From an uncultured Pirellula sp. (GTDB lineage Bacteria > Planctomycetota > Planctomycetia > Pirellulales > Pirellulaceae), in NCBI GenBank assembly GCA_964394065.1, contig CAYMXM010000001.1:46-64045 (forward strand): a DNA stretch of 64,000 bases, in the 5' to 3' direction. Under the pieces are notes generated by a model. It saw only the letters and a program-made list of their open reading frames with translations. It did no database searches and was not told where the DNA came from. The position numbers were made by a program, and so were the translations under genes. Shown here one piece after another: positions 2,914-61,417 of the stretch. The stretch's first letter is position 1; every line of letters begins with the position of its first letter.

Positions 2914-3930
2914 ATGCTTGAAGATTACCTAGAAGTTGTTCAACAAAAGTCTGATCTGACTGCCGACCAGATGCAACAAGCAATCACCTGGATGCTGGCG
3001 GGGCGGGTCGAAAACGAACAGATCGGAGCCCTTTTACTCGCTTTGCGTGACAAAGGAGAAGCGGTTAGCGAGCTGGTCGGGGCGGCCCGCGCGATGCGAA
3101 CGATGATGACACCAATCCGGACCAAGCGTTCGAATTTGATCGATACTTGCGGAACGGGTGGAGACGGTGCGAGAACGTTCAACATATCGACCGCAACCGC
3201 GATCGTGGCGGCAGCGGCTGGGGCGCCGATCGCCAAACATGGGAACCGGAAGATCACCAGCGCCACCGGCTCAGCCGATGTGCTGAGTGAACTCGGGGTC
3301 GATATCGAAGCCCCGCGCGAACGTGTAGAACATTGCCTCGACATGTTGGGATTGTGCTTTTGCTTTGCTCCCAAGCTTCATCCCGCAATGAAGCATGTCG
3401 GTGAAGTCCGGAGATCCCTTGGCGTACCAACTCTCTTCAACTACCTGGGGCCTCTTTGCAATCCAGCAAGTGCTCGGTTCCAAATCATCGGCGTCGGAAA
3501 AGAAGAGTTGCAAACCAAAATCGCAGCAGCTCTCCTGCAGCTCCCCCTGGAAGCAGCCGTCGTCGTCCGGGGAGAGGATGGGATGGATGAAGTCACCTTG
3601 TCAGCGCCGACTCAGGTGCATCATATTGCTCACGGAATGCTGACGCAGACAACCTGGACCCCCGCCTCCTTCGGACTCTCCCCGATCCGCGTTGAAGATT
3701 TGATCGTCGACGGCCCGGTCGAAAGTGCGAAAGCGATTCGAAGCATCCTCTCTGGAGAGCGAGGACCGATGCGAGATATTGTTTTGGCAAACTCCGCTGC
3801 TACGCTATGGGTCGCAGGACTAACCCATTCCCTCCCCGATGGAGTGGCAAGATCCGCGAAAGGAATCGACTCCGGCAAAGCCGCAGAACTGCTGGAGCAA
3901 CTAGGTAAAGCGAGCAGAGAGCAGGAGTGA
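2914..3930 (+). CDS. trpD: Anthranilate phosphoribosyltransferase
   Basis: DTCGTGGDG, FNIST, AKHGNR and GEDGMDE motifs. Confidence 0.97.
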   Translation: MLEDYLEVVQQKSDLTADQMQQAITWMLAGRVENEQIGALLLALRDKGEAVSELVGAARAMRTMMTPIRTKRSNLIDTCGTGGDGARTFNISTATAIVAAAAGAPIAKHGNRKITSATGSADVLSELGVDIEAPRERVEHCLDMLGLCFCFAPKLHPAMKHVGEVRRSLGVPTLFNYLGPLCNPASARFQIIGVGKEELQTKIAAALLQLPLEAAVVVRGEDGMDEVTLSAPTQVHHIAHGMLTQTTWTPASFGLSPIRVEDLIVDGPVESAKAIRSILSGERGPMRDIVLANSAATLWVAGLTHSLPDGVARSAKGIDSGKAAELLEQLGKASREQE

Positions 3931-5824: not shown

Positions 5825-5876
5825 AAGTGGTCAGGGCCGGGATCGAACCGGCGACACATGGATTTTCAGTCCATTG
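5825..5876. repeat. Prophage att direct repeat, left copy (duplicated 3' part of tRNA-Phe)
   Basis: 52 bp AAGTGGTCAGGGCCGGGATCGAACCGGCGACACATGGATTTTCAGTCCATTG, identical to 42044-42095. Confidence 0.97.
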
Positions 5877-5957
5877 ATCAGGCGGTCAGCTTCTTCCGTT
5901 TTCAAAAGCGCGAACTAACCTGAAGGGAGACCACGTACTCTCAGAGGGGATTTTGCG

Positions 5958-38128: not shown

Positions 38129-38361
38129 GATTTCACCTCGCATGGCCTCAGATCGTCGAGGCTCCACAGATCCGTCCGTTTTCGCCAGCCGGAACGGACG
38201 ACCACCTCAAAGAATCCCTTGAACAGTCCTTGCTGCAACACCTCGCCACGTCCGCATACGCGCGATAGGTGGTGTTCACGCGATCGCACGAACACGCGAT
38301 CCCCGGGGCGCGGGCTCCAGCCATCGACTGGCTTCGCGAAAGCTCGTTGTCTCGGTGTCAT
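38125..38361 (-). CDS. Small SH3/KOW-like hypothetical protein
   Basis: PGDRVFV...GEVL...EVVV...LDDLRP; overlaps both neighbours. Confidence 0.6.
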   Translation of the reverse strand: MTPRQRAFAKPVDGWSPRPGDRVFVRSREHHLSRVCGRGEVLQQGLFKGFFEVVVRSGWRKRTDLWSLDDLRPCEVKS

Positions 38362-39452
38362 GACGCGAGCCTCTCAAGCAGGGATTCTTCCACCTTGAGA
38401 TAGTTGTTCCTCGCAACCATCGGGGAATGCCCAAGAAGCATTCCGGCCTGCTGAGGTGTGATTGTCGGATCCGACGCCAAATGATTCGCACGCGTTGCTC
38501 GTAAGGCGTTGTATGGGGGCGCCCAACGTGGGACGCCGGCGCGGGTCTGCAAACCGTAGAGCCATTCGTAGCAGTTGTTCTCCGTGATCCTCGATAAGAT
38601 GCGTTCCTCCGGATCTCGGCCGCTGAGCAGCTCGGGGAGATGCTCGCGAATGGCCGGGTAGACCGGATTGACCCGGACGCGTTGATTCTTCGTCTCTTGA
38701 ATGTAGATACGGTTGCGATCAAGCTCGATATCGCAAGCGCGCAGGGCGAGCCCTTCCCGAAGGCGACAACCGGTCCATTGGCAAAGCCGCAACCAATAAC
38801 GTTCTTCTGTGTCGGTGCAAAGCTCGACCAGGTAGTCGATCCATTCCCAATGCACCGTGTCTTTGGAGCGTGGGGCAATGGTGCGGTTCAAAGCATCGCA
38901 CGGGTTAGTCTTGATCGCTCCTTTACTTCGGAGCCACTCAAAGAACAACCGCCAGTTCTTCGCGATGCGAGCCAGTGTATTCTCAGCGTATGCGTAGGAC
39001 TCCTCGAGGTCGGCTAGCAGGTCCGTGAGGCACCCCTCATCGATGCGAGGTACGTCGATCGATAGACGCTGCAGCTTGCGAACGTCGCGTAGAACTGCCT
39101 CGTCAGTTGCGACGTCAGTCGATTGTTCTTGGCGAAATACCTCGAACTCATCGATCCAATCCTCCCACGATCGCCGCTCCGGATCGATTGCGTGCGAGTC
39201 CTCGAGGTGCAACCGCTCCTGCAGGTACGCGAACTGTTTCCGCGGAATCGCTTTGAGCCAATCGGTCGTCGCTTGGGCGATCGGCAGCTCCAACTGCTGC
39301 GCCTCGAGCAATCGTCCGACGTGCCGCTTTAGTGTCGACCACTCACGTTCCCCAAGCTTGAACCGCTTGAAGCAAAGCGTGTCCTGTCGGCCAACGCGGG
39401 GCCCAGCCTGATGCCGGAAGATGAGTTGTCGATCGACGTCTCGGCTAAACAT
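38358..39452 (-). CDS. Tyrosine recombinase 2 (in the early operon)
   Basis: WTGCRLRE, NALRATR and LLGHS...NNY motifs, plus a core-binding domain. Confidence 0.88.
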   Translation of the reverse strand: MFSRDVDRQLIFRHQAGPRVGRQDTLCFKRFKLGEREWSTLKRHVGRLLEAQQLELPIAQATTDWLKAIPRKQFAYLQERLHLEDSHAIDPERRSWEDWIDEFEVFRQEQSTDVATDEAVLRDVRKLQRLSIDVPRIDEGCLTDLLADLEESYAYAENTLARIAKNWRLFFEWLRSKGAIKTNPCDALNRTIAPRSKDTVHWEWIDYLVELCTDTEERYWLRLCQWTGCRLREGLALRACDIELDRNRIYIQETKNQRVRVNPVYPAIREHLPELLSGRDPEERILSRITENNCYEWLYGLQTRAGVPRWAPPYNALRATRANHLASDPTITPQQAGMLLGHSPMVARNNYLKVEESLLERLAS

Positions 39453-39825
39453 TGCTGGCCTCCGGTTGCTTGGGAAGTCGATATTCCGCTCCGAGCCCCT
39501 TTAACACTTCGATAACATCTCCACGCGTGGCATAACGCTTGCCGGCGAGGACCAACCCCTCCCCCGATGCCATACGTCCAAACGCTTCTTTGATCCCGGC
39601 CATCAACTGCAGCTCAAGGAGACGATTGGCGAATATGCAACGGATCCACAGAACGCTGGTGTACGATTCGTGAATGGTGAAGTCAGCGTATTGATACTCG
39701 GCGGCCTGGCTCACATCCCCGCCGATTGAATGAAGCCAAGCCATCGTTACCGGCTCTCTTGCCTCGCTGATGCCTAGCGGTTGCTCGATCGTGATTAGTA
39801 TGTCCTGCTCAGGTTGCCGCGACAT
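39445..39825 (-). CDS. Hypothetical phage protein
   Basis: AAGGAGG RBS before the ATG at 39825. Confidence 0.7.
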   Translation of the reverse strand: MSRQPEQDILITIEQPLGISEAREPVTMAWLHSIGGDVSQAAEYQYADFTIHESYTSVLWIRCIFANRLLELQLMAGIKEAFGRMASGEGLVLAGKRYATRGDVIEVLKGLGAEYRLPKQPEASNV

Positions 39826-40156
39826 GACGGTCCTCCTTGCGAGACGATTGCATCGTGATTTCGTGGCGTGCAATGTTCACGCAACGGGGAGCTTCGATCG
39901 CGAGCTTCAAGTCGTCCGAAGTAAACTCCGACACTGTGATCGTGACCTCGATGTCGTCGACGGTCACTACGATTGATTCGCCTGAGTGGCGTCGGATGAT
40001 TGCGCCAACATCGCTTGTGACGGGGGAGGAGCTGTCAGTCGCGACCAGCGACATAACAGCTTCGAGACGATCGCGGCTCAATAGCGTGAGCATGATGCGG
40101 ACGTCGAGCACCTCCATGATGATCGATCGACCAATCTTTCGTCGTAAGCAGAGCAT
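39809..40156 (-). CDS. csrA: Tandem-domain CsrA/RsmA-like RNA-binding protein
   Basis: Unit 1 MLCLRRKIGRSIIMEVLDVRIMLTLLS; unit 2 IRRHSGESIV...IEVTITV...LKLAIEAPRCVNIARHEI. Confidence 0.75.
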   Translation of the reverse strand: MLCLRRKIGRSIIMEVLDVRIMLTLLSRDRLEAVMSLVATDSSSPVTSDVGAIIRRHSGESIVVTVDDIEVTITVSEFTSDDLKLAIEAPRCVNIARHEITMQSSRKEDRHVAAT

Positions 40157-40160
40157 AGGT

Positions 40161-40201
40161 TCATCCCTGTATGGCAGCCGTTAAATGGAGCCCTCATCCT
40201 G
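40161..40201 (-). promoter_or_regulatory. Two CsrA-type binding sites in the csrA-like leader
   Basis: AUACAGGGAUGA over the RBS (40172-40161) matches RUACARGGAUGU at 11/12; CAGGAUG at 40201-40195. Confidence 0.6.
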
Positions 40202-40258
40202 CCTCGCGTAGTACTACGAAACAGAATGAGGGAAATGGCCGCCGGCGCTCTTGATGAG

Positions 40259-40495
40259 CTACGGCAGCGACACCTCGATCCGCCTCTCGACGGACGAGGA
40301 GGTTCGAACCAACGAACTGAATCGGATGTTGTCAAATCGCCACGCGCTCCGAGAACGATCCACCGCGATGCGAATCGAACGAGGCAACGCTTTACCGTTG
40401 TGGATGCGTCGCATCGCTTGTTGTTCTTCGCGCATGCGTTGAGCAGCCGCGAAACCGCGTAATGCCGGTGTTCTGTTATTGCTGCTTGTTGACAT
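40259..40495 (-). CDS. Small basic hypothetical protein
   Basis: 78-aa ORF just after the 40520 terminator; weak RBS. Confidence 0.45.
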   Translation of the reverse strand: MSTSSNNRTPALRGFAAAQRMREEQQAMRRIHNGKALPRSIRIAVDRSRSAWRFDNIRFSSLVRTSSSVERRIEVSLP

Positions 40496-40519: not shown

Positions 40520-40563
40520 AAAAAGCCCGCCACCCCGGATTGATGATGCGTCGGGGTGGCGGG
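40520..40563 (-). terminator. Intrinsic terminator in the early leader
   Basis: Perfect 12-bp stem CCCGCCACCCCG/CGGGGTGGCGGG followed by CTTTTT. Confidence 0.85.
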
Positions 40564-40628
40564 AACACGAAAGGGGGCTTTGGTCCCTCCGCGTCCCCCT
40601 CGCAATCGCCTGACAGCGTGCGAGGGGA

Positions 40629-40751
40629 AACCGCCTGCAGGATTCGAACCTGCGACCTACTCGGTAGTGCAACAGCGCAGAGGTTCGACAGTCGGAGAAG
40701 TCCTCAAGCTATTGCGATACCGAGTCGCTCTACCAACTGAGCTACGACGGT
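40629..40751 (-). ncRNA. tRNA-like RNA with the anticodon loop replaced by a 57-nt hairpin
   Basis: Acceptor ACCGTCG/AGGCGGT, D arm GCTC-AGTTGGTA-GAGC, anticodon stem ACTCG/CGAGT, variable loop AGGTC and T arm GCAGG-TTCGAAT-CCTGC; the insert self-pairs. Confidence 0.85.
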
Positions 40752-40855
40752 ACGGCTCGATGCAAGAGCACCGAGCATGAGCCCGAGACAGGCAGCGTTT
40801 GAGACCACTCGAAACAAACGCCGCAAGGGCTTGAAGAACGCGAGCCACGCGGCCC

Positions 40856-40893
40856 AAAAACGAACAAAGCCCACTGAATCAGGTCCAGTGGGC
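40856..40893 (-). terminator. Terminator-like hairpin downstream of the XRE gene
   Basis: GCCCACTG/CAGTGGGC stem followed by TTTGTTCGTTTTT. Confidence 0.65.
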
Positions 40894-40901
40894 CACAGTG
40901 T

Positions 40902-40950
40902 CGGCAGAATTCTGCCGGCGTGCAATAGGGATTCGGCAGAATTCTGCCGA
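40902..40950. promoter_or_regulatory. Two identical perfect operator palindromes overlapping a putative early promoter
   Basis: CGGCAGAATTCTGCCG at 40902-40917 and 40934-40949; minus-strand TTGCAC-N17-GACACT at 40925-40897. Confidence 0.75.
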
Positions 40951-41202
40951 TTATTTTCGAAATTCGTCCATACTTATCTCGAAGAAATCGGCAATTGCAG
41001 CCGCGGTATCGCCACTAATTGAATACGGATACGTGCCGTTATACAGAGCTTGGGTCGAGCGTTCCGCTATGCCAAGTGCTTTCGCAACGTCTTGGTGGCG
41101 GATACCGGACTCATCCACAAGTTCCCGAAAACGCTTGCTCACACCTTTAGTAAACTCAAGGTTCGCGATTGTTGCCGCTTTAGCTGTTGCCATTTCAATC
41201 AT
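40951..41202 (-). CDS. XRE-family HTH regulator (repressor/Cro-like)
   Basis: RFRELVDESGIRHQDVAKALGIAERST...IADFFEISMDE. Confidence 0.9.
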   Translation of the reverse strand: MIEMATAKAATIANLEFTKGVSKRFRELVDESGIRHQDVAKALGIAERSTQALYNGTYPYSISGDTAAAIADFFEISMDEFRK

Positions 41203-42043: not shown

Positions 42044-42095
42044 AAGTGGTCAGGGCCGGGATCGAACCGGCGACACATGGATTTTCAGTCCATTG
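42044..42095. repeat. Prophage att direct repeat, right copy (within the intact tRNA)
   Basis: Identical 52 bp to 5825-5876. Confidence 0.97.
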
Positions 42096-42119
42096 CTCTA
42101 CCTACTGAGCTACCTGACC
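42047..42119 (-). tRNA. tRNA-Phe(GAA)
   Basis: GGTCAGGTAGCTCAGTAGGTAGAGCAATGGACTGAAAATCCATGTGTCGCCGGTTCGATCCCGGCCCTGACCA; full cloverleaf; CCA not encoded. Confidence 0.97.
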
Positions 42120-46621: not shown

Positions 46622-46681
46622 TCTGTCCTCTCCTGAAAAGTCCATTCGGTCTAGAATTCAGTATACTAAAAACAGAGGCGC

Positions 46682-46843
46682 ATCCCAACCCGTGGCGTAA
46701 GCGAGGGACAGCGTCGCGAGTGCACGTAGCCCTTGTCGGGAATATCTCAGGCGTCGGGTGGCACGTCCCTGAGGCACGAAGGGCGTGCTGGGAGGGATGG
46801 CTGGTTGCCAGCGCTGTCCCTCGCTTACGCCACGGGTTGTGAT
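46682..46843. repeat. MITE/REP-like element family B
   Basis: Terminal inverted repeats of consensus ATCACAACCCGTGGCGTAAGCGAGGGA. Confidence 0.85.
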
Positions 46844-47132
46844 GGGGGGACGCTTCGCGTCCACCCCCTTACCTCCGATGCTTCAGGCCTGGCTGGGGGT
46901 GAGGGGTAGAATCGCTAGAAATAATAGCCGAGTTTAAGCTGCCAACTACACTTCTGGTGTGTTCCGTGGCCGCTTGGCGTGCGAAGGTGATTGCAATGGA
47001 AACGAAGATTGACTTGCGATCTCAATCTGATATGGAGGCAGCGGCCACTTCACACACCCTACGACTACGAACCCATTCGAAACAGCGAAGGTATTTCGGA
47101 ACAGTTCCTTAATTACTTATCACCAATCCAGC

Positions 47133-48761
47133 ATGACACACTCAAGACACCTTTCTTTCTCTCGAAGGCTTCTTGCAAAGCTCGCAATCCTTCTCACGGC
47201 TCCACTCCTCTTTATGGGATCGATGGGATCGTCCCTTCGAGCGGAATCCTCGCCTCCGAATATCGTGATCCTTTTAGCGGATGACCTTGGTTATTCCGAT
47301 CTCGGATGTTTTGGAGGAGAGATCGAGACGCCGAATCTAGATCGACTCGCAAGCAACGGACTTCGCTATACGCAGTTTTACAACACCGCGAGATGTTGGC
47401 CATCCCGCGCGGCTCTCCTAACGGGGTACTATGCGCAACAGGTACGTCGCGATGCGATACCGGGGATGGGGGGAGGCAACCGGGAAAAGCGACCGGTCTG
47501 GGCAAAGCTCTTGCCGGAGCACCTCAAAGGAGCGGGATACCGCTCCTATCACAGCGGGAAGTGGCATGTCGATGGGAAGGTTCTGGAGAACGGATTCGAT
47601 CGATCCTATCTAGTCAATAATCATGGGAACTTTTTCTCCAACCAACGGAATCAGATCGATGATAAACCGATCGATGCACCTGAGTCGGATGGGTTCTACG
47701 TAACCGATGCAACCGCAGACCACGCGGTGGAGTGCCTCAAGGATCATGCGGCAAATCATTCGAACAAGCCTTTCCTCTCTTATGTCGCTTTTATCGCGCC
47801 TCACTTTCCTCTCCATGCCAAGCCGGAGGATATCGCGAAGGTTTCCGATCGTTATCGGGATGGCTGGGGTGCGATGCGTCAACGGCGTTTTGCAAAAATG
47901 CAACAGCTCGGAATCACGACGACAACCCTTTCTCCTTTAGAACGAGAAGTTGGACCACCTTACCCATTTCCAGAGGCGATCGCTCGACTGGGAAGTGGAG
48001 AAGTAAATCGTCCGATTCCTTGGGAAGAATTGACCGAAGGGCAGAAGGAGTTTCAATCGACTAAGATGGCGATCCATGCTGCGATGGTCGAACGGATGGA
48101 TTTGGAGATTGGAAAGATACTTTCGCAGCTTGAAGCGATGGGGGCGATAGAGAACACCCTCATTCTCTTTTGTTCCGATAACGGAGCGAGCGCGGAGATC
48201 ATGGTTCGGGATGGAGGGCATGACCCCGAGGCTCCGATGGGAAGTGCCGCAACCTATCTTTGCTTGGGTCCTGGTTTCTCGAGCGCTTGCAACACGCCTC
48301 ATCGTCGGCATAAGACTTGGGTGCATGAAGGTGGGATCAGCACATCGTTCGTGGCCCATTGGCCCCGAGGGATTCAAGAGGGGGGAGCGATTCGAACGAC
48401 CCCATCCCATTTGATCGATATCGTTCCAACGGTTCTGGATGTCGCAGGAGTGAAGTTTCCGAGCGAAGTCGATGGAACTCCTCTGCCAGCTCCTCCTGGT
48501 CGGAGTCTCGTTCCGTCATTTCGCGAAGATCGCTCGATCGAACGGGAATCCCTTTGGTGGTTGCACGAGGGGAACCGTGCGATTCGAGTTGGGGATTGGA
48601 AGCTTGTAGCCGCGAAAGGAGAGCCGTGGCAGCTTTATGATATGAAGTCGGATCGGGCGGAACAGAATGATGTTGCGGAGCTGAACAAAGAGGTGGTGGA
48701 AGAGCTTGCGGCGCTTTGGGAAGAGAAATTAGAGATGATGAAAAGCGAGCGCGGTTTGTAA
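47133..48761 (+). CDS. Arylsulfatase
   Basis: PNIVILLADDLG, CWPSR (formylglycine motif), GKWH and SDNG motifs. Confidence 0.95.
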   Translation: MTHSRHLSFSRRLLAKLAILLTAPLLFMGSMGSSLRAESSPPNIVILLADDLGYSDLGCFGGEIETPNLDRLASNGLRYTQFYNTARCWPSRAALLTGYYAQQVRRDAIPGMGGGNREKRPVWAKLLPEHLKGAGYRSYHSGKWHVDGKVLENGFDRSYLVNNHGNFFSNQRNQIDDKPIDAPESDGFYVTDATADHAVECLKDHAANHSNKPFLSYVAFIAPHFPLHAKPEDIAKVSDRYRDGWGAMRQRRFAKMQQLGITTTTLSPLEREVGPPYPFPEAIARLGSGEVNRPIPWEELTEGQKEFQSTKMAIHAAMVERMDLEIGKILSQLEAMGAIENTLILFCSDNGASAEIMVRDGGHDPEAPMGSAATYLCLGPGFSSACNTPHRRHKTWVHEGGISTSFVAHWPRGIQEGGAIRTTPSHLIDIVPTVLDVAGVKFPSEVDGTPLPAPPGRSLVPSFREDRSIERESLWWLHEGNRAIRVGDWKLVAAKGEPWQLYDMKSDRAEQNDVAELNKEVVEELAALWEEKLEMMKSERGL

Positions 48762-48863
48762 AAACTGCGGAAGGTGAGGTTTAAGGAATAAGGCTTAAGA
48801 CTTAAGGAAGAAGAGGGGGAGCAAGCCCATCAGCGGTAAGGGGTAGACGCGAAGCGTCCCCCC

Positions 48864-49034
48864 ATCACAACCCGTGGCGTAAGCGAGGGACAGCGTCGCG
48901 AGTGCAAGTAGACCTTGTCGAAAATATCTCAGGCGTTGGGTGGCACGTCCCTGAGGCACGAAGAGCGTGCTGTGAGACCTTGGATGGATGCTTGGTTGCC
49001 AGCGCTATCCCTCGCTTACGCCACGGGTTGTGAT
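48864..49034. repeat. MITE/REP-like element family B
   Basis: Same terminal inverted repeats and internal block as the other family B copies. Confidence 0.85.
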
Positions 49035-49038
49035 TGGA

Positions 49039-49962
49039 CTAAATCATTTTGTTTTGTCGGGCTAGCCAGACGAGGAGTCCTTTTTGGGCGTGCATGCGAT
49101 TGCCGGCTTCTGGGAAGACGAGGCTTTGCTCGGAATCGATGACGTCGTCGGTGATCTCTTGACCACGACGCGCGGGCAAGCAGTGAAGGACTTTGCAGTG
49201 AGAGGGTGCCTTTGCCATCAAAGCGCGATTGATCTGGTAAGGTTGGAAAGCGCTGGTTCGCTTAGCCGCTTCCGCTTCTTGCCCCATGCTGGTCCATACA
49301 TCGGTGTAGAGAAAGTCCGCTTCTCGAACCATCTTGTCGATGTCGGTGCATTGGTCGAAATCGATCCAGCCCGCGTGCTTCTTCACCTTGTCAATGTAGG
49401 CCCCTGGGATCTGGTACTCGGCTGGACCGACCAAACGAAACTTCACTCGCCCCATCGCACAAACATGCAATAGGGACTTGGCGACGTTGTTCCCATCCCC
49501 GACGAAGGTAACTTGCTTTCCTTGGACCTCTCCGAGAGTCTCGCTCATCGTCATGTAATCGGCGAGAGCTTGGCAGGGGTGGGCTTTGTCGGTCAAACCA
49601 TTGATGATCGGGAGGGCGTTGTGAGAGGCGAGTTCGTCGATGGTCGATTGGCAGATCGCACGGCATACCAGGAAGTCGCAGTACTCTCCCAACACACGTA
49701 CAAAGTCGGCAATTGTTTCTCGTTCACGCCAACCTACGTCACTCGTTAAATAGAGGGCGGTTCCACCTAGTTGAGACATGCCAGCTTCAAAGCTCACGCG
49801 CGTTCGAAGACTTGCTTTCTCGAAGACCAACGCCAATGTTCGGTTCTTTAGATGGTCCGGTCGTTCCCCTTGGGCCAGTCCTGCTTTGAGGTCGGCGGCT
49901 AGGGAAAGTATGTCTTGGAGCTCTTCGACCGTTAGGTCAAAGAGAGATCGAATATGCTTCAT
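49039..49962 (-). CDS. argF: Ornithine carbamoyltransferase
   Basis: SLRT, HPCQ, DVWTSMG and HCLP motifs. Confidence 0.95.
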   Translation of the reverse strand: MKHIRSLFDLTVEELQDILSLAADLKAGLAQGERPDHLKNRTLALVFEKASLRTRVSFEAGMSQLGGTALYLTSDVGWRERETIADFVRVLGEYCDFLVCRAICQSTIDELASHNALPIINGLTDKAHPCQALADYMTMSETLGEVQGKQVTFVGDGNNVAKSLLHVCAMGRVKFRLVGPAEYQIPGAYIDKVKKHAGWIDFDQCTDIDKMVREADFLYTDVWTSMGQEAEAAKRTSAFQPYQINRALMAKAPSHCKVLHCLPARRGQEITDDVIDSEQSLVFPEAGNRMHAQKGLLVWLARQNKMI

Positions 49963-49968
49963 TTTCGA

Positions 49969-50889
49969 CTACGTTGAGGTGATGCGCGTAGCGGGTGATT
50001 GGCGTGACTGGATGATTTCCGTCCCCACGCCAGCGGTAGTATAGATTTCCAATAGGAGAGAATGTCGGAGTTGGCCGTCGATGATATGAACCTTTCCGAC
50101 CCCTCGCTGGAGAGTGGAAAGACAAGCCTCGACCTTGGGGATCATTCCACCAGCAATAACCCCTTCGTCGATCAACTGTTTTGCTTCTGCGGCTGTCAGT
50201 GAATGGATGACGCTCTCGGGATCCTCTTTGACCCGACGGACGCCGTTGACATCGCTGATGAAGATAAGCTTCTCGGCCCCGAGTGCCTCGGCGACTGCCA
50301 TCGCTGCGGTATCGGCATTGACGTTGTACTTTTGCCCCGCTTCATCGATACACATCGAGGGGATGACCGGTATTTGTTCGGTATAGGTGAGGGCTTCGAT
50401 CGTCTGACGATCGACGCGCGTTACGTGGCCGACATAGCCCAAATCGATCGAGCTTGAGCCCGGCTCCTCCAGCAGTAGCTTCTCGCCGAACAGCACGTTG
50501 GTCGTCCGGAAGTTCAAGTTCATCGCACGCCCCCCCAACCGCTCGATCTCGTCGGTCAAATGCTCATTGAGTTCATAAGCGAGAGTTTCCTCGACGATTT
50601 GCAAAGTCTTCGAGTCGGTGTAGCGGCGGCCTTGAATCCAGACCGGTTCGATCGCCGCTTTCTCCATCGCCTTATTGATGGAAGGCCCTCCTCCATGGAC
50701 GACGACGGGACGCATACCCACAGATTCCATGAAGATGATATCGAGGAGCGTATGGCGCATCGCGTCGGGATTCCCCATCAGAGACCCTCCGAGCTTAATC
50801 ACGGTCGTTTTGCCTCGGAAGCGACGGATCCACCCCATGGCTTCGATCAACGTATCCGCTTTGGCAATCGCTTCGTGAGGTGCGTTCAA
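49969..50889 (-). CDS. argB: Acetylglutamate kinase
   Basis: VIKLGGS, VHGGG, YNVNAD and GGMIPK motifs. Confidence 0.96.
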
Positions 50890-51202
50890 TTGTGCGTCCT
50901 ATTCTCGACCAATAAACCAACGACGCCGATGCGAACAAGGGTCCGAATCGGCGACGGGTTCTTTCGGTTGTGTCTGTATTAGTAGGTGCTTGCTGGGGCC
51001 TTGAGCCCGAGAGTCTTGGAACAAGGGTGGAAAACCCAACATTTTAGGCAGCCAGGCCGCGCATTGTCAATCATAGCCAAGGGTAAGGGGAGATAAGGGA
51101 AAAACATTTGGAGATTTTGGTACGGAATGAAGGAGATGATGGCACTAATAGGGGAGGCTTGGCGAATCGGCGGTAAGGGGGCGGACGCGAAGCGTCCCCC
51201 CA

Positions 51203-51371
51203 ATCACAACCCGTGGCGTTAGCGAGGGATCGCGTCACGAGTGAACGTTGCCCTCGTCGGTAACACTCAGGCGCCGTGTGGCAGTCCCTGAGGCACGAAG
51301 GGCGTGCTGTGAGACCTGGGATGGATGTCAGGTTGTCAGCGCTGTCCCTCGCTTACGCCACGGGTTGTGAT
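51203..51371. repeat. MITE/REP-like element family B
   Basis: Same terminal inverted repeats and internal block as the other family B copies. Confidence 0.85.
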
Positions 51372-51492
51372 TCGGGCCTCGCTTACGCGTCGGCCAAGAG
51401 AGAGCCTCAAAACAACCTATGAACCCGACGTAAACATGGGCGAGACGCCGGGGCCACGTCATGAGATTGAGTCATAAAAGAAAAACAAAACT

Positions 51493-53763
51493 ATGCGTTT
51501 AACTTTACGAACATTGCTTGCCTACCGCGACGGGGTTCTTGGCCCCAAAGACCGGGCTCTTCTTGAGAACAAGCTGAAAGAGAGTTCCACGGCTCGGGAA
51601 ATCTCGCAGCGAATCGATCAGAGCCTGCGCAACCCGAAGCTAGCGCCGATTCCCGTCGATGCAAAAGAACCCGGCTTCGATGCGAACCAAATCGCCGAGT
51701 ATCTCGACGATACCATTCCCACAGAACAGATTCCCGAACTAGAGCGGCGGTGCCTTGAAAACAATGCTCTCCTCAGCGAAGTGGGGAGTTGCCACTCGAT
51801 CCTCTCGAAGGCTCTCACCGAATCGGTGGAGATCCCTGACGTTCTTCGAGCCAGAGTGCGGGCTTTACCGAGCAACCCTGAGCAAGGACTCGGGAGTCTC
51901 CGCATGCAACGTCTCGCAGGGGAAGGAAGCGGTCAAGCCACTCCTGCCCATCCCGCTGCGTCGGCGGGCGGCTCCTCTGAAAACCTCGCGGTTCGATCCG
52001 TTCCAGTCAACGAGTCGGTTACCAAGTCGACCCGGGAAACACTCGCGAGGGCTTCGGTTCGTGCTGCCCCCGCCGAACCGAGCGGGCGTGGAATCGAACT
52101 GAGCGATTCCTCGGGAGTGCAAGTACCCGAGTATCTCCTCGGAAGTGACCGAAGCTGGATGCGCTCGGCCTTAATGGTCGCGGCTTTGGCCCTCGCATTG
52201 CTGGTGGTAAGCATCCTGGCTATCGGGCCTGTGGAGCGGATCGGTTATCTCCTTGGCCCCGCCAAAACCCAAACGGAGTTGGCGAAGGGGAATTCCACCA
52301 CTCCCTCGGCTCAACCCGAACCTACCCCCAATGTCAAACTAAAACCAACCGATGCACCGGAGGTGACAGCGAACAAAGCAAACCTTCCTTCCGCCGATTC
52401 TGAGAGCCCCTCACCGAAGATGGATGTTCCGGCAGGGGATGTAAAGAACGGTCCCGACGAGCCCTCGGTTCCCGATCCTCCTCCCGCTGCGACTCCGAAG
52501 GAGACGAACGGTGCTTCCGGCAGTGCCTCGGTACAGTGGCTTCCCGCTAGCGAGGAAGCTTCGCGAGCGGTTCTCTTGGTCTGCGAAACACCGGATGAGG
52601 AGTCTCCCAAATGGGAACTTGCCACCGCTGGTCAGGAGTCGAAGAAGGGACATTGGATCGTTCCTTTCGCATATAGGACAGAGTTGCTGCTAGGAAAAGG
52701 TGTGCGAGCGATCGTATGTGGGGATACCGAAGTGATCGGTATCGAGTCAGTTTCTCCCGGACCTTCCGAGGGGGATTCTTCTCAGGCTGCGCCTAGGTCG
52801 ACAACTCCCCAGGTTGAGATCCCCTACGGCCAGATGGTTTTGTTCCCGAAGGGTGAAGCGAAAGAGCTTCTCGTGAAGACTTCGGTCGGAACTTTGGAGG
52901 TTTTCTTCGGGGATGAGCAGGGGAGCTGCGGGCTGGAGATCGGTTCGCGTTGGAAGAATTGGACTGTCATGCCCGGGGAACCGTTTGATCCCAAAACCAA
53001 TGCTCCCCCCCTGGCTGTCTCTCCTTACATCGGTGTGATCGGGATCCAAGGAGCGACGACGATCCGGCTGAATCGAGGCGGAGACGCGGAGCTTCCCGCA
53101 GATTTTATCGAGCTGGATGTGGGAGATTTTGCTAGGATTGGGGAAGACGGCACGGTCGGGGTGAGCGCCATTTCGAATACCCCTCCGTGGCTCCGAGCCA
53201 ATATCGAACGCCCGATCGACCAGCTCGCTGCCAACGACATCGGGAAACAGATCCGATCGGAGGAATCCGAGAATATCGGGGATGTTTTGAGGGAATTAGC
53301 GAGGCACCGAAAAAGTGAAACCGCGTCGATGGCCACTCGGATTCTGTGCCAGATTGGAGATTTTCAGCCCCTTTTTGGGGAAGAGGGACTTTTTGCGACG
53401 AAAGGAAATTTCAGCCATTCTGGAACTTGGATAAATAAAATCCCGAACTTCCTCTATTCTTCTCCTAGAGCTTCCCAATTTTTGGAATCTGCGTCCGAAA
53501 AGTTGGGGGATAAGGTCGCCGGGAAAATAAGATTGATGGTTCCCATGAGCGATGAGCAACTAGCAGCCGGTGGAGAAAAACTTTTGGTCGACACTCTTTC
53601 GAGCCCGTCCCTGGACGATCGAGTACTCGCCATCCATCAGCTGGTTGCCATTACGCAGACCTCCCTCGGCTTTCACCCAGAACGACCCTCGAACGATGCG
53701 GTTCAAAACTGGAAAAAGAAGCTAGGGAAATCGGAAATTCGTTTCACCACCGACACTCAATAA
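51493..53763 (+). CDS. Hypothetical membrane protein with an anti-sigma-like N-terminus
   Basis: LLAYRDGVL...IAEYLD...CHSIL N-terminus, a TM helix, a Pro-rich linker and a HEAT-like end. Confidence 0.7.
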   Translation: MRLTLRTLLAYRDGVLGPKDRALLENKLKESSTAREISQRIDQSLRNPKLAPIPVDAKEPGFDANQIAEYLDDTIPTEQIPELERRCLENNALLSEVGSCHSILSKALTESVEIPDVLRARVRALPSNPEQGLGSLRMQRLAGEGSGQATPAHPAASAGGSSENLAVRSVPVNESVTKSTRETLARASVRAAPAEPSGRGIELSDSSGVQVPEYLLGSDRSWMRSALMVAALALALLVVSILAIGPVERIGYLLGPAKTQTELAKGNSTTPSAQPEPTPNVKLKPTDAPEVTANKANLPSADSESPSPKMDVPAGDVKNGPDEPSVPDPPPAATPKETNGASGSASVQWLPASEEASRAVLLVCETPDEESPKWELATAGQESKKGHWIVPFAYRTELLLGKGVRAIVCGDTEVIGIESVSPGPSEGDSSQAAPRSTTPQVEIPYGQMVLFPKGEAKELLVKTSVGTLEVFFGDEQGSCGLEIGSRWKNWTVMPGEPFDPKTNAPPLAVSPYIGVIGIQGATTIRLNRGGDAELPADFIELDVGDFARIGEDGTVGVSAISNTPPWLRANIERPIDQLAANDIGKQIRSEESENIGDVLRELARHRKSETASMATRILCQIGDFQPLFGEEGLFATKGNFSHSGTWINKIPNFLYSSPRASQFLESASEKLGDKVAGKIRLMVPMSDEQLAAGGEKLLVDTLSSPSLDDRVLAIHQLVAITQTSLGFHPERPSNDAVQNWKKKLGKSEIRFTTDTQ

Positions 53764-53794
53764 AACTCCAATCTCGATCTCGACTTCAATTGCA

Positions 53795-56700
53795 ATGGAT
53801 GTCCCTGACGAGGAACCGCGTATGATGCACCCGCTCCTATTCTCTCCCTTCGCGATCCTAATTGCAGGTTTGGTCGCCTGCGCATTTCCTCTCCCTGCTG
53901 TTGCGATAGCCCAAGGAGATGTGCAGGTCGTAGTCCAAGCCCAAAACCAGCCTGGGAGAGGAGGCCCCCCACCAGGGCAACCGCCCCAACCGGGGCAACC
54001 TGGCCAACCTCCTGGGGGGCCAAACGCCTCGAAGCCAGGTGAAAAGACTCCTGGACAACCGGATGCCAATCCAAACGCGCCAGCTGCCCCGGCTGACTCG
54101 GTGAAGAGGACCGACAAGCCACCCGAACCTCCGAACAAGAAAGAGTTCGACGTTCGCCCAGACGACAAGGGGATGGTGGAGTTTCAGTTTCGCAATCAGG
54201 CTTGGCCGGACATCTTAAGGTGGGTTGCGGAAACTTCCAATTTGTCTCTCGATTGGCAAGAGCTTCCGAACGATTACCTCAACATCGCGACCCAGCGCAA
54301 GCAGTCTCTCGAGGATACGCGCGACTTGATCAATCGCCACCTCCTGGCACGCGGGTACACGATGCTGGAACTCGATGGGGTCATTCAAGTTGTCAAAACA
54401 GCAGGGATCAATGTCTCTTTGGTCCCACGGGTTCCGCCAGCTGTCTTGGAGGCCCTCCCGCCCAACCGCTTCGTCCGAACCTCATTTTCTCTAACGACCC
54501 TTCTCGCCAAAGACGTGGTCGAGGAGTTCAAGCCTTTGGTGAGCTCGAACGGAACGTTGAATGCGCTCGAAGCGACCAATCGATTGGAAGCGATGGATTC
54601 TGCCTCGAACCTAGCCGAGATTGCCAGGATCATTCAGGAGGAGGAATCGGACGAGGCCGCCGAAAGCCTCGCTCGTGAATTCGAATTGGAATTCGTTCGG
54701 GCTGTCGACGCGAGAGAGCAACTGATGAGTTTTCTCGGCATCGAGCAGAAGGGGGGCAACCGCCCGATGAACCCTATGGAAATGCAGATGCAGCAGCAAC
54801 AGATGCAAATGCGCATGCAGATGCAACAGCAACAAGCGGCTTCGGGAGGAAAAGTTAATCAGCCCAAAGAAGCGGCCCCGGTCTATCTCATCGCCAACAT
54901 GCGGCGCAACAGCATCATCGCCCATGCGGCCCCCGACAAAATGGCAATCATTGCCGCCTTCATCAAACGGATCGATGTCCCTAGTGAGAATTCGATGAGC
55001 ATGCAGCGACTGGAAACGCGCATGAAAGTCTACCGTCTCTCAAGCCTTGATCCCAAGCAGCTGGTCGCATCGATGATCGCCATGGATGCGCTGGAACCAA
55101 CCACTCGATTGGAAGTGGATGATAAAAATCGCGCGATCATCGCCTACGCTTCCTTGGGGGATCAGCTACTGATTCAACAAACCATCGATCGCCTCGATGG
55201 ATCGGCACGCGACTTTGAAGTAATCCAATTGAGAAGACTCAATGCGGAGGATGTGGCGGGAACGATCAAGTTTCTGATGGGTAGCGAGCAGCCCAAAGAT
55301 GATAGTCGCAATCGAAACCGATACTACTACGATCCATGGGGTTACAACCAGCCGCAGGAAAAAGAATCGACCGATGCATTCCGTGTCGGTGCCAATTCTC
55401 AAGACAACCAAATCCTCCTTTGGGCCAACGAGATCGAAATCAAAGAGGTGAACAAGCTCTTGATGAAGTTAGGAGAAATCCCACCCCAGGGGCAAGCACG
55501 CAGTACGATTCGAACGATCGATGCATCACGCTCTCAAGAAACGAAAGAGTACCTCGAGCGCCTCCGAGAAGCTTGGAGCAAGGTTTCTCCACAACCACTG
55601 GTTCTCCCAGGGGACGAAGAGTTTCAATCCGACGAGCCCGAGCTCAATCTAATCGAAGAAGAGGACAAGAAGGAAGAAGCAGAGAAAGATCCTGATGCTT
55701 CAAAATCAGACGCCTCGAAATCAGACACCTCGAAATCAGACGCCGAGAAAAAGGAATCCGAAGAGGAGCGAAAGGAACGCCAAACGTCGGCGAGCGAGAT
55801 CTCGTTAGATCGTACTTTTGAGAATGAGCCGAGTTCCATTCCTGCGGGACGTTTGTCGGCCGCGACTGTGCAGGAGGATAGCGACGAGGAGAAAACGGCC
55901 TCCAAAGAACAGTCGAAAGATGTCACCTCGGGCGGGGGAACGGAAGCGACAGGGAAAGGGAAGCCGAAATCGACTTCGGCCAACGATCCTTTGGCAGGAA
56001 TCGAGATTCGATTCGATGAGAAGGGAAACCTTGTCATCGCTAGCGACGATCTCGACGCGTTGGACCGCCTTGAGGAGATGATGATGACGAATTCTCCTCC
56101 CCAACGTAAGTACGAGGTTTTTTACATCCAACACACGCGTCCCTCATGGATTGAATTGAATTTGAAGGACTACTTCAAAGATGAGGATGAACCTAAGAGC
56201 AACTCGAACAGCTTCTATTCTTGGCTGTACGGATTCGATGAACCGTCGAAGAAGGAGAAGAGCGACCCACAGTTGGGAAAAAAGAGGAAGCTCAAGTTCA
56301 TCAGCGACCTAGACACACGTTCGCTGATCGTGATCGGTGCGGATGAGCAGCAGCTCAAGACGATCAAGAGTCTTATCAAACTGTGGGATGTCCCTGAGAA
56401 ACCGAATCGTCAGAAGCTTCGATTTACCAAACTGGTGAAGGTCGAGCATTCGCGAGCCGATTCGATTGTCGACGCGATCAAAGAAGCGTACCGGGATTTG
56501 CTGAGCGCCAACGACAAAGCCTTTAGCAAAGGGAAAGGAGAGGGAAACCAAGAATCGAAACACGAGGACACTTCGGAATCCGTCTCCGACAGTGGCGGGA
56601 TGAGTTTTCGATTCACCGGGCGTCTTTCGATGGGGATCGACCGCGTGACCAATTCGATCATCGTGTCGGCAGAGGGAGAGGACTTACTGAAGCTGGTCGT

Positions 56701-56950
56701 GGATATGATCAAGGAATTGGATGTTGCAGCACAACCCTCGGGGGCTGTTCAAATGGTGGAGGTAGGTGGTACAAATTCGGTGGCGATGGAGCGAGCCCTC
56801 AAAGCGTTGATCGGGCGCAAAGAAGAATCGAAGCCGCCGCAACCCGGCAATCAGCAAGGTGGCGAGGTTCAACAGAACAACAACGATCGCCCACCCAGCA
56901 ACAACCGAAATTCCTCTCAGCGACGAAATCGACAATCATCCAATGACTAA
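53795..56950 (+). CDS. Secretin N-domain-repeat protein (GspD/PulD N-terminal-like)
   Basis: N0-like AWPDILRWVA..SNL and repeated N domains (LEATNRL, NSIIA, DNQILL, TRSLIV, TNSIIV); no secretin barrel seen. Confidence 0.75.
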   Translation: MDVPDEEPRMMHPLLFSPFAILIAGLVACAFPLPAVAIAQGDVQVVVQAQNQPGRGGPPPGQPPQPGQPGQPPGGPNASKPGEKTPGQPDANPNAPAAPADSVKRTDKPPEPPNKKEFDVRPDDKGMVEFQFRNQAWPDILRWVAETSNLSLDWQELPNDYLNIATQRKQSLEDTRDLINRHLLARGYTMLELDGVIQVVKTAGINVSLVPRVPPAVLEALPPNRFVRTSFSLTTLLAKDVVEEFKPLVSSNGTLNALEATNRLEAMDSASNLAEIARIIQEEESDEAAESLAREFELEFVRAVDAREQLMSFLGIEQKGGNRPMNPMEMQMQQQQMQMRMQMQQQQAASGGKVNQPKEAAPVYLIANMRRNSIIAHAAPDKMAIIAAFIKRIDVPSENSMSMQRLETRMKVYRLSSLDPKQLVASMIAMDALEPTTRLEVDDKNRAIIAYASLGDQLLIQQTIDRLDGSARDFEVIQLRRLNAEDVAGTIKFLMGSEQPKDDSRNRNRYYYDPWGYNQPQEKESTDAFRVGANSQDNQILLWANEIEIKEVNKLLMKLGEIPPQGQARSTIRTIDASRSQETKEYLERLREAWSKVSPQPLVLPGDEEFQSDEPELNLIEEEDKKEEAEKDPDASKSDASKSDTSKSDAEKKESEEERKERQTSASEISLDRTFENEPSSIPAGRLSAATVQEDSDEEKTASKEQSKDVTSGGGTEATGKGKPKSTSANDPLAGIEIRFDEKGNLVIASDDLDALDRLEEMMMTNSPPQRKYEVFYIQHTRPSWIELNLKDYFKDEDEPKSNSNSFYSWLYGFDEPSKKEKSDPQLGKKRKLKFISDLDTRSLIVIGADEQQLKTIKSLIKLWDVPEKPNRQKLRFTKLVKVEHSRADSIVDAIKEAYRDLLSANDKAFSKGKGEGNQESKHEDTSESVSDSGGMSFRFTGRLSMGIDRVTNSIIVSAEGEDLLKLVVDMIKELDVAAQPSGAVQMVEVGGTNSVAMERALKALIGRKEESKPPQPGNQQGGEVQQNNNDRPPSNNRNSSQRRNRQSSND

Positions 56951-57794
56951 GGAAACTTCTGCCGAGTCACCCAAAGGATCGGCAGCCTGCTCGGAGCAAC
57001 TACCTCTCGCGGGGCAACTCGCGCTCGTAACGGGGGCTGCTCGAGGGATCGGTGCGGGGATCGCTCGATCCCTTGCCGCTGCTGGAGCCGACGTTGCTGT
57101 CAACGACATCAACGATCCTTCGGAAACGGTCGCATGTTGCCAGTCTCTCGGCAGACGATCTTCTCCCTATACCTGCGACGTATCGAAGCAGGAGGAGGTG
57201 GAGGGGATGGTCGATCGGGTGGAGAAAGAGATGGGGCCCATCTCCATTCTTGTCTCCAACGCGGCTTACAGCGATCGAGAGCTCTTCTACAAAGCCTCGA
57301 TGGAAGGATTTGAAAAGACGATCGATGTCTGCATGTGGGGGCCTTATTATTTAACGCGCGCGGTAGCCAATCGAATGATCCCCCGTTCTTTGGAAGTGGG
57401 GCCAGCGAATTTTCGTGGAAACATCGTCGTGGTTTCTTCGCCACATGCTTATAAGCCGATCCCTGGCGCGATGGCTTACAACATGGGGAAGGCGGCGATC
57501 GATCAGATGGCGAAAACGGCAGCGGTGGAGTTGGCCGAGTACCGCATTCGGGTGAACATCGTCCATCCTGGTTGGACCGACACTCCGGGGGAGCGAAAGT
57601 TCTTTCGGGAAGAAGAGTTGAAGGAGTTGGGGAGTGCCCTCCCGTGGGGGAGGTTAGCGCAACCTGAAGACCTCGGACATGGAGTCGCCTTCTTAGTCGA
57701 TCCTAGAAGTGACTATATCACCGGCGCAACCCTCTCCATCGATGGCGGAATCGTCTTACCGTTTCAAGAGATGTTTCGGGTAAAGGATCGATAG
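56943..57794 (+). CDS. Short-chain dehydrogenase/reductase
   Basis: TGAARGIG, VSNAA, YNMGK and RVNIVHPG motifs. Confidence 0.93.
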   Translation: MTKETSAESPKGSAACSEQLPLAGQLALVTGAARGIGAGIARSLAAAGADVAVNDINDPSETVACCQSLGRRSSPYTCDVSKQEEVEGMVDRVEKEMGPISILVSNAAYSDRELFYKASMEGFEKTIDVCMWGPYYLTRAVANRMIPRSLEVGPANFRGNIVVVSSPHAYKPIPGAMAYNMGKAAIDQMAKTAAVELAEYRIRVNIVHPGWTDTPGERKFFREEELKELGSALPWGRLAQPEDLGHGVAFLVDPRSDYITGATLSIDGGIVLPFQEMFRVKDR

Positions 57795-57876
57795 AGAGTC
57801 TGTTCGTAACCACGGATAACACCGATAGCACGGATTTTTGATATCGGTGCTAAGGGGGGGAAGCGAAGACCCCCCC

Positions 57877-58048
57877 ATCACAACCCGACGCGTTAGCGAG
57901 GGATAGCGTTGCGAGTGAGCGTGGCCCTTGTCGCGAATATTTCGAGCGTCGGGTGGCACGTCCCTGAGGCACGAAGGGCGTGCTGTTGTGCCTTATATTG
58001 GATGCCTAGTTGCCAGCGCTGTCCCTCGCTTACGCCACGGGTTGTGAT
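57877..58048. repeat. MITE/REP-like element family B
   Basis: Same terminal inverted repeats and internal block as the other family B copies. Confidence 0.85.
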
Positions 58049-58175
58049 TTTGTGGCCCGGGCCACGATGAAGACTTTTCGCGATTGCAAAATTTTCACAC
58101 ACCAACCGCGTAACGGCAATCATTTCGCTCTACAATCTACTCCGAGCCCCTTTCAACTTCTCCATTGGACCGAAC

Positions 58176-61146: not shown

Positions 61147-61192
61147 ACGTGCACTCGCGACGCCGTCCCTCGCTTACGCCACGGGTTGTGAT
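61147..61192. repeat. Half copy of the family B element
   Basis: ...CCCTCGCTTACGCCACGGGTTGTGAT, right terminal repeat only. Confidence 0.7.
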
Positions 61193-61417
61193 GGGGGGGA
61201 CCATTTTTCTCTGAAACGGACTCATTTGCAATTAAAATGCAAAAGCATCCTGTTGCGATTAGAGAGGGCGTTTGTTATTGTAGTGTTTTTGGTTGTTCGA
61301 TGCATATGCATTAGTGTTGCAAATTAGATTTCGATGTGTTTGCCAGAACGATCAGCCTACTATCATCCTCGCGGGAACGGTTGAGATTCCGTAGTCCCTA
61401 ACTGAGCTGAGCCCCTC

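Follow-up and report, generated by a model that had tools for sequence, protein, structure and literature searches.

What is encoded in the roughly 430 nt that separate a pair of phage operators from the first early gene behind them, when no convincing open reading frame (ORF) is found there? The question is raised by a prophage in the window – as we call the whole 64,000-nt stretch of DNA that was analysed – which is DNA of a Pirellulaceae-type planctomycete. The first-pass annotation had remarked on about 400 nt without a convincing ORF, framed by two terminator-like hairpins and containing a tRNA-like RNA with a further hairpin behind it, and had proposed an RNA-based lysogeny switch. The non-coding character stands, as none of the ORFs inside the stretch is conserved in related prophages, and the comparisons presented here support the view that the stretch is a deliberately built and conserved RNA module and not junk. 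As a whole (411 nt), it folds with a z score of -6.1, a value that 0/100 shuffled sequences equalled. What this module might do is less readily answered than what it is made of: it would form a compound RNA element of a repressor-controlled early operon, for which processing by the host's tRNA enzymes is the reading that we favour, tentatively, over a genetic switch.

The prophage early operon and its repressor cassette

The prophage spans 36 kb and is bounded by a 55-nt direct repeat (5825-5879 and 42044-42098) that duplicates the 3' part of a tRNA-Phe gene (42046-42119, minus strand). At its tRNA-proximal end every gene lies on the minus strand, in the order ORF160, XRE-type repressor, leader stretch, ORF78 (40259-40495), CsrA-like gene (39809-40156; Pfam CsrA, 3.7e-11; phrog_9500), ORF142 and tyrosine integrase (38358-39452). 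ORF78 and its homologue ORF77 of the relatives, ORF142 and ORF160 had no match in searches of Pfam, PHROGs and Atlas, and the CsrA-like protein retrieved only itself from an index of 5.8 billion proteins. The host flank of the prophage (46675-58054, with 124-198 and 61161-61198) carries dispersed families of 38-114-nt repeats with CCCTCGCTTACGCCACGGGTTGTGAT and its inverse, which have a REP/MITE-type look.

Related prophages were reached by two routes: a search with the integrase led to two prophages in IMG/VR (L101 and L102, 67-68% identity), and a search with the 25-nt leader motif described below led to a prophage of Pirellulaceae bacterium SH501 (L105/L107). The repressors of these three relatives differ, and all of them keep the first terminator (T1), the 25-nt motif, the second terminator (T2) and the tRNA-shaped RNAs. 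Their order is T1, leader, a first tRNA-like element (#1), ORF77, a second tRNA-like element (#2), a long version of hairpin H1, a small hairpin, T2 and the start codon of the CsrA-like gene, with the two tRNA-like copies bracketing ORF77. In the four prophages the tRNA-like elements lie on the sense strand of the operon.

The repressor gene of the window (40951-41202, minus strand) encodes 83 amino acids with a helix–turn–helix domain only (Pfam HTH_26, 8.3e-7; phrog_8), and in the neighbouring ORFs no antiterminator family could be recognised; this agrees with the first-pass annotation, which had recognised neither an antiterminator protein nor a CI repressor with a peptidase domain. Upstream of the gene there is a promoter-like TTGCTC-N17-TATTCT that is conserved in the relatives. 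At its stop codon begin two identical palindromic operators of 16-18 bp (40901-40950, 32 bp centre to centre), which flank and overlap the predicted early promoter. Their palindrome occurs in two exact copies and nowhere else in the window at up to three mismatches, and the relatives have different palindromes at the same position. The putative early promoter (-35 at 40920-40925, -10 at 40897-40902) was assigned from hexamer resemblance, the hexamer positions being conserved, although little is established about promoters in this phylum; it would start transcription at about 40890, with which the conserved hexamer positions in the relatives are consistent.

This predicted start falls within the 5' arm of T1, a hairpin with an interrupted U-tract (40856-40894, minus strand; stem 40868-40894, 11 pairs) that the first-pass annotation had delimited almost identically (40856-40893) and that was matched by a terminator scan. 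Across the four phages 10/10 stem pairs are kept, one of them changed on both sides (A-U, G-C, G-U). T1, like T2, is a G+C-rich hairpin followed by a U run, as expected of an intrinsic terminator, and both hairpins are conserved in the four prophages. T1 is best read as the terminator or insulator of the repressor gene: it would end the transcription of a gene that is probably expressed constitutively, and early transcripts, which would begin inside its 5' arm and hence could not form it, would escape it.

The repressor of the window shares only 14-26% identity with its counterparts in the relatives. Given this divergence and the differing operators, with conservation resuming exactly at T1, the repressor and its operators appear to form an exchangeable cassette, the RNA module belonging instead to the conserved early operon. 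The segments concerned (window 40897-40950, L101 865-940, L102 850-905) have been swapped between the otherwise related prophages, among which three immunity types can be told apart; the XRE promoter and ribosome-binding site upstream and T1 downstream stay conserved. A separate peculiarity of the relatives is that CCUGAUUCAG, the loop and 3' arm of T1, has a perfect complement some 90 nt further downstream (L101 951-960 and 1043-1052; also in L102 and, more weakly, in L105); in their minimum-energy fold a long-range helix with CCUGAUUCAG replaces T1, and the window has no counterpart of it.

The tRNA-shaped RNA and its neighbouring hairpins

Overlapping the end of T1 lies the 25-nt leader motif (40848-40872, minus strand), which spans the T1 end, the U-tract and GGGCCGCG; it is identical in the four phages save for one base, and pattern scans with it found matches in these four phages only. 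A structured leader of about 115 nt follows T1 and closes with a 9-bp hairpin (40755-40776, minus strand) that, according to the folds, ends 3 nt before position 1 of the tRNA-shaped RNA; a 7-bp hairpin occupies the equivalent place in the relatives, before copy #1.

The tRNA-shaped RNA itself (40629-40751, minus strand) has a 7-bp acceptor stem, a D arm, a 5-nt variable loop, a T arm and a discriminator U, and encodes no CCA; a 57-nt irregular hairpin replaces the 7-nt anticodon loop. The tRNA-like RNA that the first-pass annotation had claimed is borne out by the Rfam tRNA model (RF00005), which the window copy matches with 45.6 bits (E 7.6e-8; gathering score 29) and the relatives' copies with 47-52 bits. 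It is the sole oversize tRNA match in the genome, and ARAGORN in its default mode does not call it, doing so only when a 50-nt 'intron' is allowed. In the relatives the replacement of the anticodon loop is shorter, namely 12 nt in #1 (77 nt in total) and 26-28 nt in #2 (92-94 nt in total). De novo folding gave a cloverleaf for 7/7 copies.

The conservation of this fold goes well beyond that of the sequence. In the pair table, 21 stem pairs are kept over three sequence types, the single mismatch being G7-A66 in the window copy, and six pairs show double compensatory changes (acceptor pair 7; anticodon-stem pairs 1, 2, 3 and 5; T-stem pair 3). The sample behind this covariation comprises four instances, three of them close relatives, and three independent sequence types. 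Every copy retains U8, G18G19, the T-loop and the U discriminator; the full tertiary set of A14, G15-C48 and G26-A44 occurs in the window copy and the #2 copies only, whereas the #1 copies have U14, A26-C44 and a variable loop of 4 nt. At 13/66 core positions #2 departs from the window copy, with one pair broken and six changed on both sides (pair-table count), and the paralogues #1 and #2 are about 62% identical (mean column identity in a seven-copy alignment), each with a full cloverleaf. That these elements are debris of an attachment site was considered and rejected: the two copies in the relatives, both of them complete and sharing only about 62% of their sequence, are not duplicated fragments, and the att repeat of the prophage sits in tRNA-Phe.

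A 7-nt anticodon loop with U33 and a purine at position 37, as a decoding tRNA has, is found in none of the copies. With introns allowed, ARAGORN assigns them to Asp(AUC), Gly(UCC), Leu(UAA) and Leu(AAG), and in default mode to 4-base 'anticodons' or Lys; orthologues share no conserved anticodon. To judge from these comparisons, the elements are selected, non-decoding tRNA-shaped RNAs. Their closest host tRNA, for all three sequence types, is tRNA-Arg(CCU), and the #1 loop resembles the Arg loop with its CCU triplet repeated.

How the single complete element of the window relates to the two copies of its relatives is apparent from its composition: it stands at the #1 position, but its T arm, its variable loop and the start of H1 behind it match the #2 unit. 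A degenerate second element is found further downstream (40191-40268, minus strand; fold z = -4.3), with an acceptor 5' strand and a D-arm-like hairpin (40238-40268) and a 17-bp hairpin (40191-40232) but no T arm, and its sequence matches the 5' end of the relatives' copy #2. The stop codon of ORF78, the small conserved protein gene that comes first after T2, lies at tRNA positions 8-10 of this degenerate element, which the first-pass annotation had overlooked; in the relatives, the ORF77 stop codon is formed by U8-A9-G10 of tRNA-like #2. ORF77 is, by its pattern of substitution, a real gene: over the last 30 codons 5/5 differences between L101 and L102 are synonymous.

Behind the cloverleaf, three abutting hairpins – H1, H2 and T2 – complete the module. 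H1 (40596-40627, minus strand), the 9-bp hairpin that had been noted directly after the tRNA-like RNA, starts one base past the discriminator in the fold and corresponds by homology to the first part of the longer H1 found behind #2 in the relatives; in the first 15 nt past the tRNA-shaped RNA, 13 positions match L105. H2 (40564-40595, minus strand; 11 pairs including G-U) holds CGGAGGG in its 5' arm. T2 (40520-40563, minus strand) is indeed the strong terminator that had been proposed at this place, with a 12-bp G+C-rich stem, a 14-nt loop, five U and -27.3 kcal/mol, and its counterparts in the relatives (-25.6 to -32.6 kcal/mol, four U) end about 28 nt before the start codon of the CsrA-like gene. 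The loop of T2 in L101 (1612-1621) and L102 (1576-1585) displays the CsrA-type motif AAGGA a short way ahead of the CsrA-like gene; the motif is absent from L105 and the window.

A consensus scan of the coding strand past T2 found no sigma-70-like promoter, for which the relatives moreover have no room. Given this result and the 28-nt gap in the relatives, transcription probably has to read through T2 to reach the CsrA-like gene and the integrase. As ORF77 stands before T2 in the relatives and ORF78 after it in the window, T2 seems to move together with the tRNA-like unit of the #2 type rather than with the segment between operators and first gene.

Proposed excision by host tRNA enzymes and the rival explanations

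The mechanism to which we incline, as a tentative proposal built from sequence comparison, is that the element is cut out by host RNase P and the enzymes that process tRNA 3' ends, with T1 as insulator of the repressor gene and T2 as attenuator of the early transcript. The early transcript would carry a tRNA-shaped RNA that lacks an anticodon loop and keeps the acceptor/T-arm stack, the elbow and the discriminator for the end-processing enzymes; these would cut the transcript at fixed points and release a stable RNA that displays a lineage-specific arm on a tRNA scaffold. T2 would stop most early transcripts, leaving ORF78, the CsrA-like gene and the integrase with read-through only. By the pair and loop table, the copies have what a substrate of RNase P and 3'-end processing needs, namely a 7-bp acceptor stacked on a 5-bp T stem and a T-loop/D-loop elbow (G18G19, U54-A58, C56), the window copy with its one G-A mismatch at pair 7-66. 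RNase P places its cut by gauging the T-arm/acceptor stack from the elbow, without regard to the anticodon (PMC4919913); it also processes the phage C4 antisense RNA and polycistronic mRNAs (PMC11143913), and an engineered 'tRNA scaffold' in which an insert replaces the anticodon stem-loop is processed and stable in E. coli (PMC3753655). Excision is the best-supported reading because the element combines this tRNA-scaffold design with a position inside an mRNA. The host, for its part, has a type-A RNase P RNA (308 bits) and an enzyme of the CCA-adding type; a search for RNase Z gave no clear orthologue, only sub-threshold metallo-beta-lactamase matches. The missing CCA is the norm of this host, in which at most 4/75 tRNA genes encode it.

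Two features sit less comfortably with excision. A cut 5' of copy #2 would strip ORF77 of its stop codon, which is awkward unless it is itself regulatory, and the window and its relatives differ in gene order, which means that no simple scheme of punctuation is strictly conserved.

Might the RNA instead, or in addition, act by base pairing? In a riboregulator of the C4/CI type, the arm of the excised RNA would pair, in trans or in cis, with a target within its own operon (a ribosome-binding site, for instance) and control translation or premature termination. The position of the element recalls the P1 c4-icd-ant operon, in which an RNase P substrate in the leader is followed by a small ORF (PMC11143913), and the 12-nt loop of the relatives' #1 includes CCUCCU, which forms the core of the 16S 3' end in the host, and can pair with GGAGGAGG before the CsrA-like gene; the apical loop of the window is pyrimidine-rich too (UUCUCC). 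Pyrimidine-rich loops, however, pair with any Shine–Dalgarno sequence, which makes the #1 loop suggestive but generic, and the duplexes between arm and transcript never exceed shuffled controls: the best duplex of the window arm with the 2.9-kb transcript (-33.6 kcal/mol) compares with a mean of -33.9 kcal/mol for shuffled queries, and no target stands out for loop #1 or arm #2 of L101, whose CsrA ribosome-binding site is only the fourth-best match for loop #1. The CsrA-like gene of the window lacks a matching purine run. An Rfam search of 3 kb on both strands (E up to 10) gave no C4/CI-type match, tRNA being the only matching family. The P4-like model of the first-pass annotation, left with neither such a match nor target boxes above chance, fares no better, and we regard a riboregulator of this type as unlikely. 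Much the same degree of doubt attaches to a more elaborate conjecture, in which the elements are tRNA-scaffolded riboregulators of the lysis–lysogeny switch: RNase P and 3'-end enzymes would mature these tRNA-Arg(CCU)-like RNAs, and the replaced anticodon arm (an anti-Shine–Dalgarno CCUCCU loop in the relatives) would be the effector that controls translation of the CsrA-like and integrase genes; the excision of copy #2 would turn the ORF77 mRNA into a non-stop message and couple tRNA-type processing to the fate of the first early protein. The switch first proposed for this locus would have the leader RNA act in cis, either on the polymerase in the manner of HK022 put or by alternative pairing, and so decide on read-through of T2. 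T2 is a strong and conserved terminator placed immediately ahead of the downstream genes, and no promoter-like site follows it; the invariant 25-nt motif and a small conserved hairpin lie just past the predicted start; and no antiterminator protein was recognised in the neighbouring ORFs. Yet neither arm of T2 has an upstream competitor in the four phages: in the window and L101, at least half of 200 shuffled arms do as well, and even the best duplexes of the T2 5' arm in L102 and L105 are matched by 14/200 shuffles, which leaves an alternative-pairing attenuator unsupported. The 7-bp pairing between UUCUCCG and CGGAGGG, which had been put forward as part of the switch, does exist, but it is no better than chance and its CGGAGGG partner is sequestered in the 5' arm of H2. 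With the pairing, the arm targets and the T2-arm competitors all at the level of shuffled sequences, the tRNA-like RNA finds no backing as a lysogeny switch. The leader motif shares only CUUUG, a weak similarity, with the boxA of a same-genus rrn leader (GAUCUUUGACAA), put and nut sites are not tRNA-shaped, and ORF77 comes before T2 in the relatives, ORF78 after it in the window. A switch in cis is therefore rather unlikely in our estimate; read-through of T2 might still conceivably be set by a polymerase-modifying RNA near the 5' end or by a factor such as the basic ORF77/78 protein.

Other explanations dispense with regulation of the transcript altogether. As a tRNA decoy, an Arg/Lys-type mimic would occupy a tRNA-binding protein of the host or of a rival, for instance a defence nuclease that targets tRNAs, or a modification enzyme. 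Class I tRNA tertiary nucleotides are retained in full by the window copy and the #2 copies, the nearest host tRNAs are Arg(CCU) and Lys(CUU), and phage tRNAs have been proposed to counter tRNA-targeting defences (PMC10264068); yet the known anticodon nucleases recognise the anticodon loop, which these RNAs lack, the arm is completely different among the window, #1 and #2, and no known defence or anti-defence gene adjoins, which together make a decoy quite unlikely. Still less probable is that we are looking at decaying phage tRNA genes with no present function, their terminators being those of the repressor gene and of a former tRNA gene. The kinship with tRNA-Arg(CCU), the visible decay of the second copy in the window (which has lost its T arm) and the varying insert lengths (5, 19-21 and 50 nt) are what decay would leave behind, but the 13/66 core differences between the window and #2 come with one broken pair against six double changes, paralogues only about 62% identical within one phage each keep a full cloverleaf, the extended arm of #2 has gained a U-G to C-G change in L105, and the position is conserved in heteroimmune phages. 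That the elements are genuine decoding tRNAs with a spliced intron is hardly conceivable. ARAGORN calls all copies as tRNAs once introns are allowed, but the assignments are inconsistent among copies, and in the window the arm is a continuous 8-bp stem from which no excision leaves a 7-nt loop; an intron-bearing tRNA was rejected. Inserts of 5-50 nt are, moreover, far below the size of a group I intron, and the tRNA splicing endonuclease of archaea and eukaryotes is not known from bacteria.

The rrn leader used as the boxA reference above (L115) is of some use in its own right: at 3170-3182 it has the boxA-like GAUCUUUGACAA downstream of a promoter of the TTGACA-N17-TTACCAT type, and it offers a genus reference for promoter and antitermination motifs.

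Known systems and occurrence elsewhere

The ingredients of excision by host tRNA enzymes – RNase P-processed phage RNAs, tRNA punctuation and tRNA scaffolds – are already known. The CI RNA of satellite phage P4 is a structured leader RNA of an immunity operon that is released by RNase P. The C4 RNA of P1 and P7 is likewise a small structured RNA in the leader of an immunity operon, upstream of a small ORF and released by RNase P (PMC11143913). Neither C4 nor CI is a cloverleaf, however, and both have defined complementary target boxes in their own transcript, whereas the prophage element has no Rfam C4 match and no target above chance, and stands beside a protein repressor with operators.

As regards processing, mascRNA of MALAT1 provides a tRNA-like fold within a longer transcript that is read by RNase P and RNase Z. 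Plant mitochondrial tRNA punctuation and its t-elements also place tRNA-like folds in longer transcripts, with RNase P and RNase Z making the RNA ends, and their copies can flank a coding region (PMC1920247). Unlike these organellar or nuclear cases, the prophage element is bacterial and has a complete cloverleaf with a long arm, and its cleavage is a prediction. The engineered 'tRNA scaffold' has an identical architecture, in which the acceptor, D and T arms are kept and a hairpin replaces the anticodon stem-loop (PMC3753655); it is synthetic, whereas the prophage element occurs naturally, within an mRNA leader and with a terminator on either side. HK022 put, lambda nut and rrn boxA resemble it as structured or conserved RNAs near the start of an early transcript and upstream of terminators, but put is a pair of stem-loops with no tRNA shape, and the prophage has no recognised N-like protein. 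Among viruses, species 1 and 2 of T4 and the tRNA-miRNA RNAs of gammaherpesvirus 68 are non-decoding RNAs built on tRNA-like modules, and in the latter the tRNA-like part is followed by hairpins that RNase Z releases. The T4, gammaherpesvirus and bacterial YrlA (Y RNA-like) RNAs differ from the prophage element in being part of a tRNA cluster or of pol III units, and the Rfam YrlA model (RF02553) does not match it, its lone weak match (19 bits) being to a host tRNA-Phe. In the literature searched, no temperate phage was described as having a complete cloverleaf without an anticodon in its early leader.

If host tRNA enzymes do excise the element, bacterial viruses would offer a case of tRNA punctuation and, at the point where a temperate phage makes its decision, nature's own version of the laboratory tRNA scaffold. 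The phage biology of Planctomycetota is almost unknown, and the idea can be tested in the cultured strain SH501 (CP197422.1), which carries a related prophage.

Close relatives of the element seem to be few, at least in the data at hand, since no members were added when viral contigs, metagenomes, 185,579 species genomes and 401 of the order's genomes were scanned further. In the 401 genomes, tRNA-likes near a CsrA-like gene occur only in the SH501 prophage; blastn against the element's own genome and 200 genomes of the order gave no full-length copy, just T-arm matches to ordinary tRNAs. The XRE protein and a phrog_2600 protein, used as baits in viral contigs, retrieved no related loci, metagenome scans with the leader motif and the integrase alignment yielded nothing usable, and a viral scan for tRNA-likes with a CCUCCU loop returned the two already-known relatives only.

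In a wider sense the class may be broad and under-described, as tRNA-shaped genes with 45-75-nt inserts appear in many unrelated phages: a pattern scan found tRNA-type D and T arms 45-75 nt apart in 72 viral contigs (L029-L100). Four other insert-bearing viral tRNA-likes have lysis genes, head genes or unknown ORFs as neighbours rather than repressors. Several classes recur among the 72 contigs, including elements with ACAGCAA after the hairpin (often ending in CCA), elements with a GGUGAAGGACC motif and those with a perfect long arm (five contigs), and some of the contigs from giant-virus bins resemble ordinary intron-bearing tRNA-Tyr. The genome from which the window comes has tRNA arrays of its own, with about 20 matches (many of them low-scoring) in 2.3 kb on contig C749 and eight in 1 kb on C467, which may represent a phage- or island-borne tRNA cluster.
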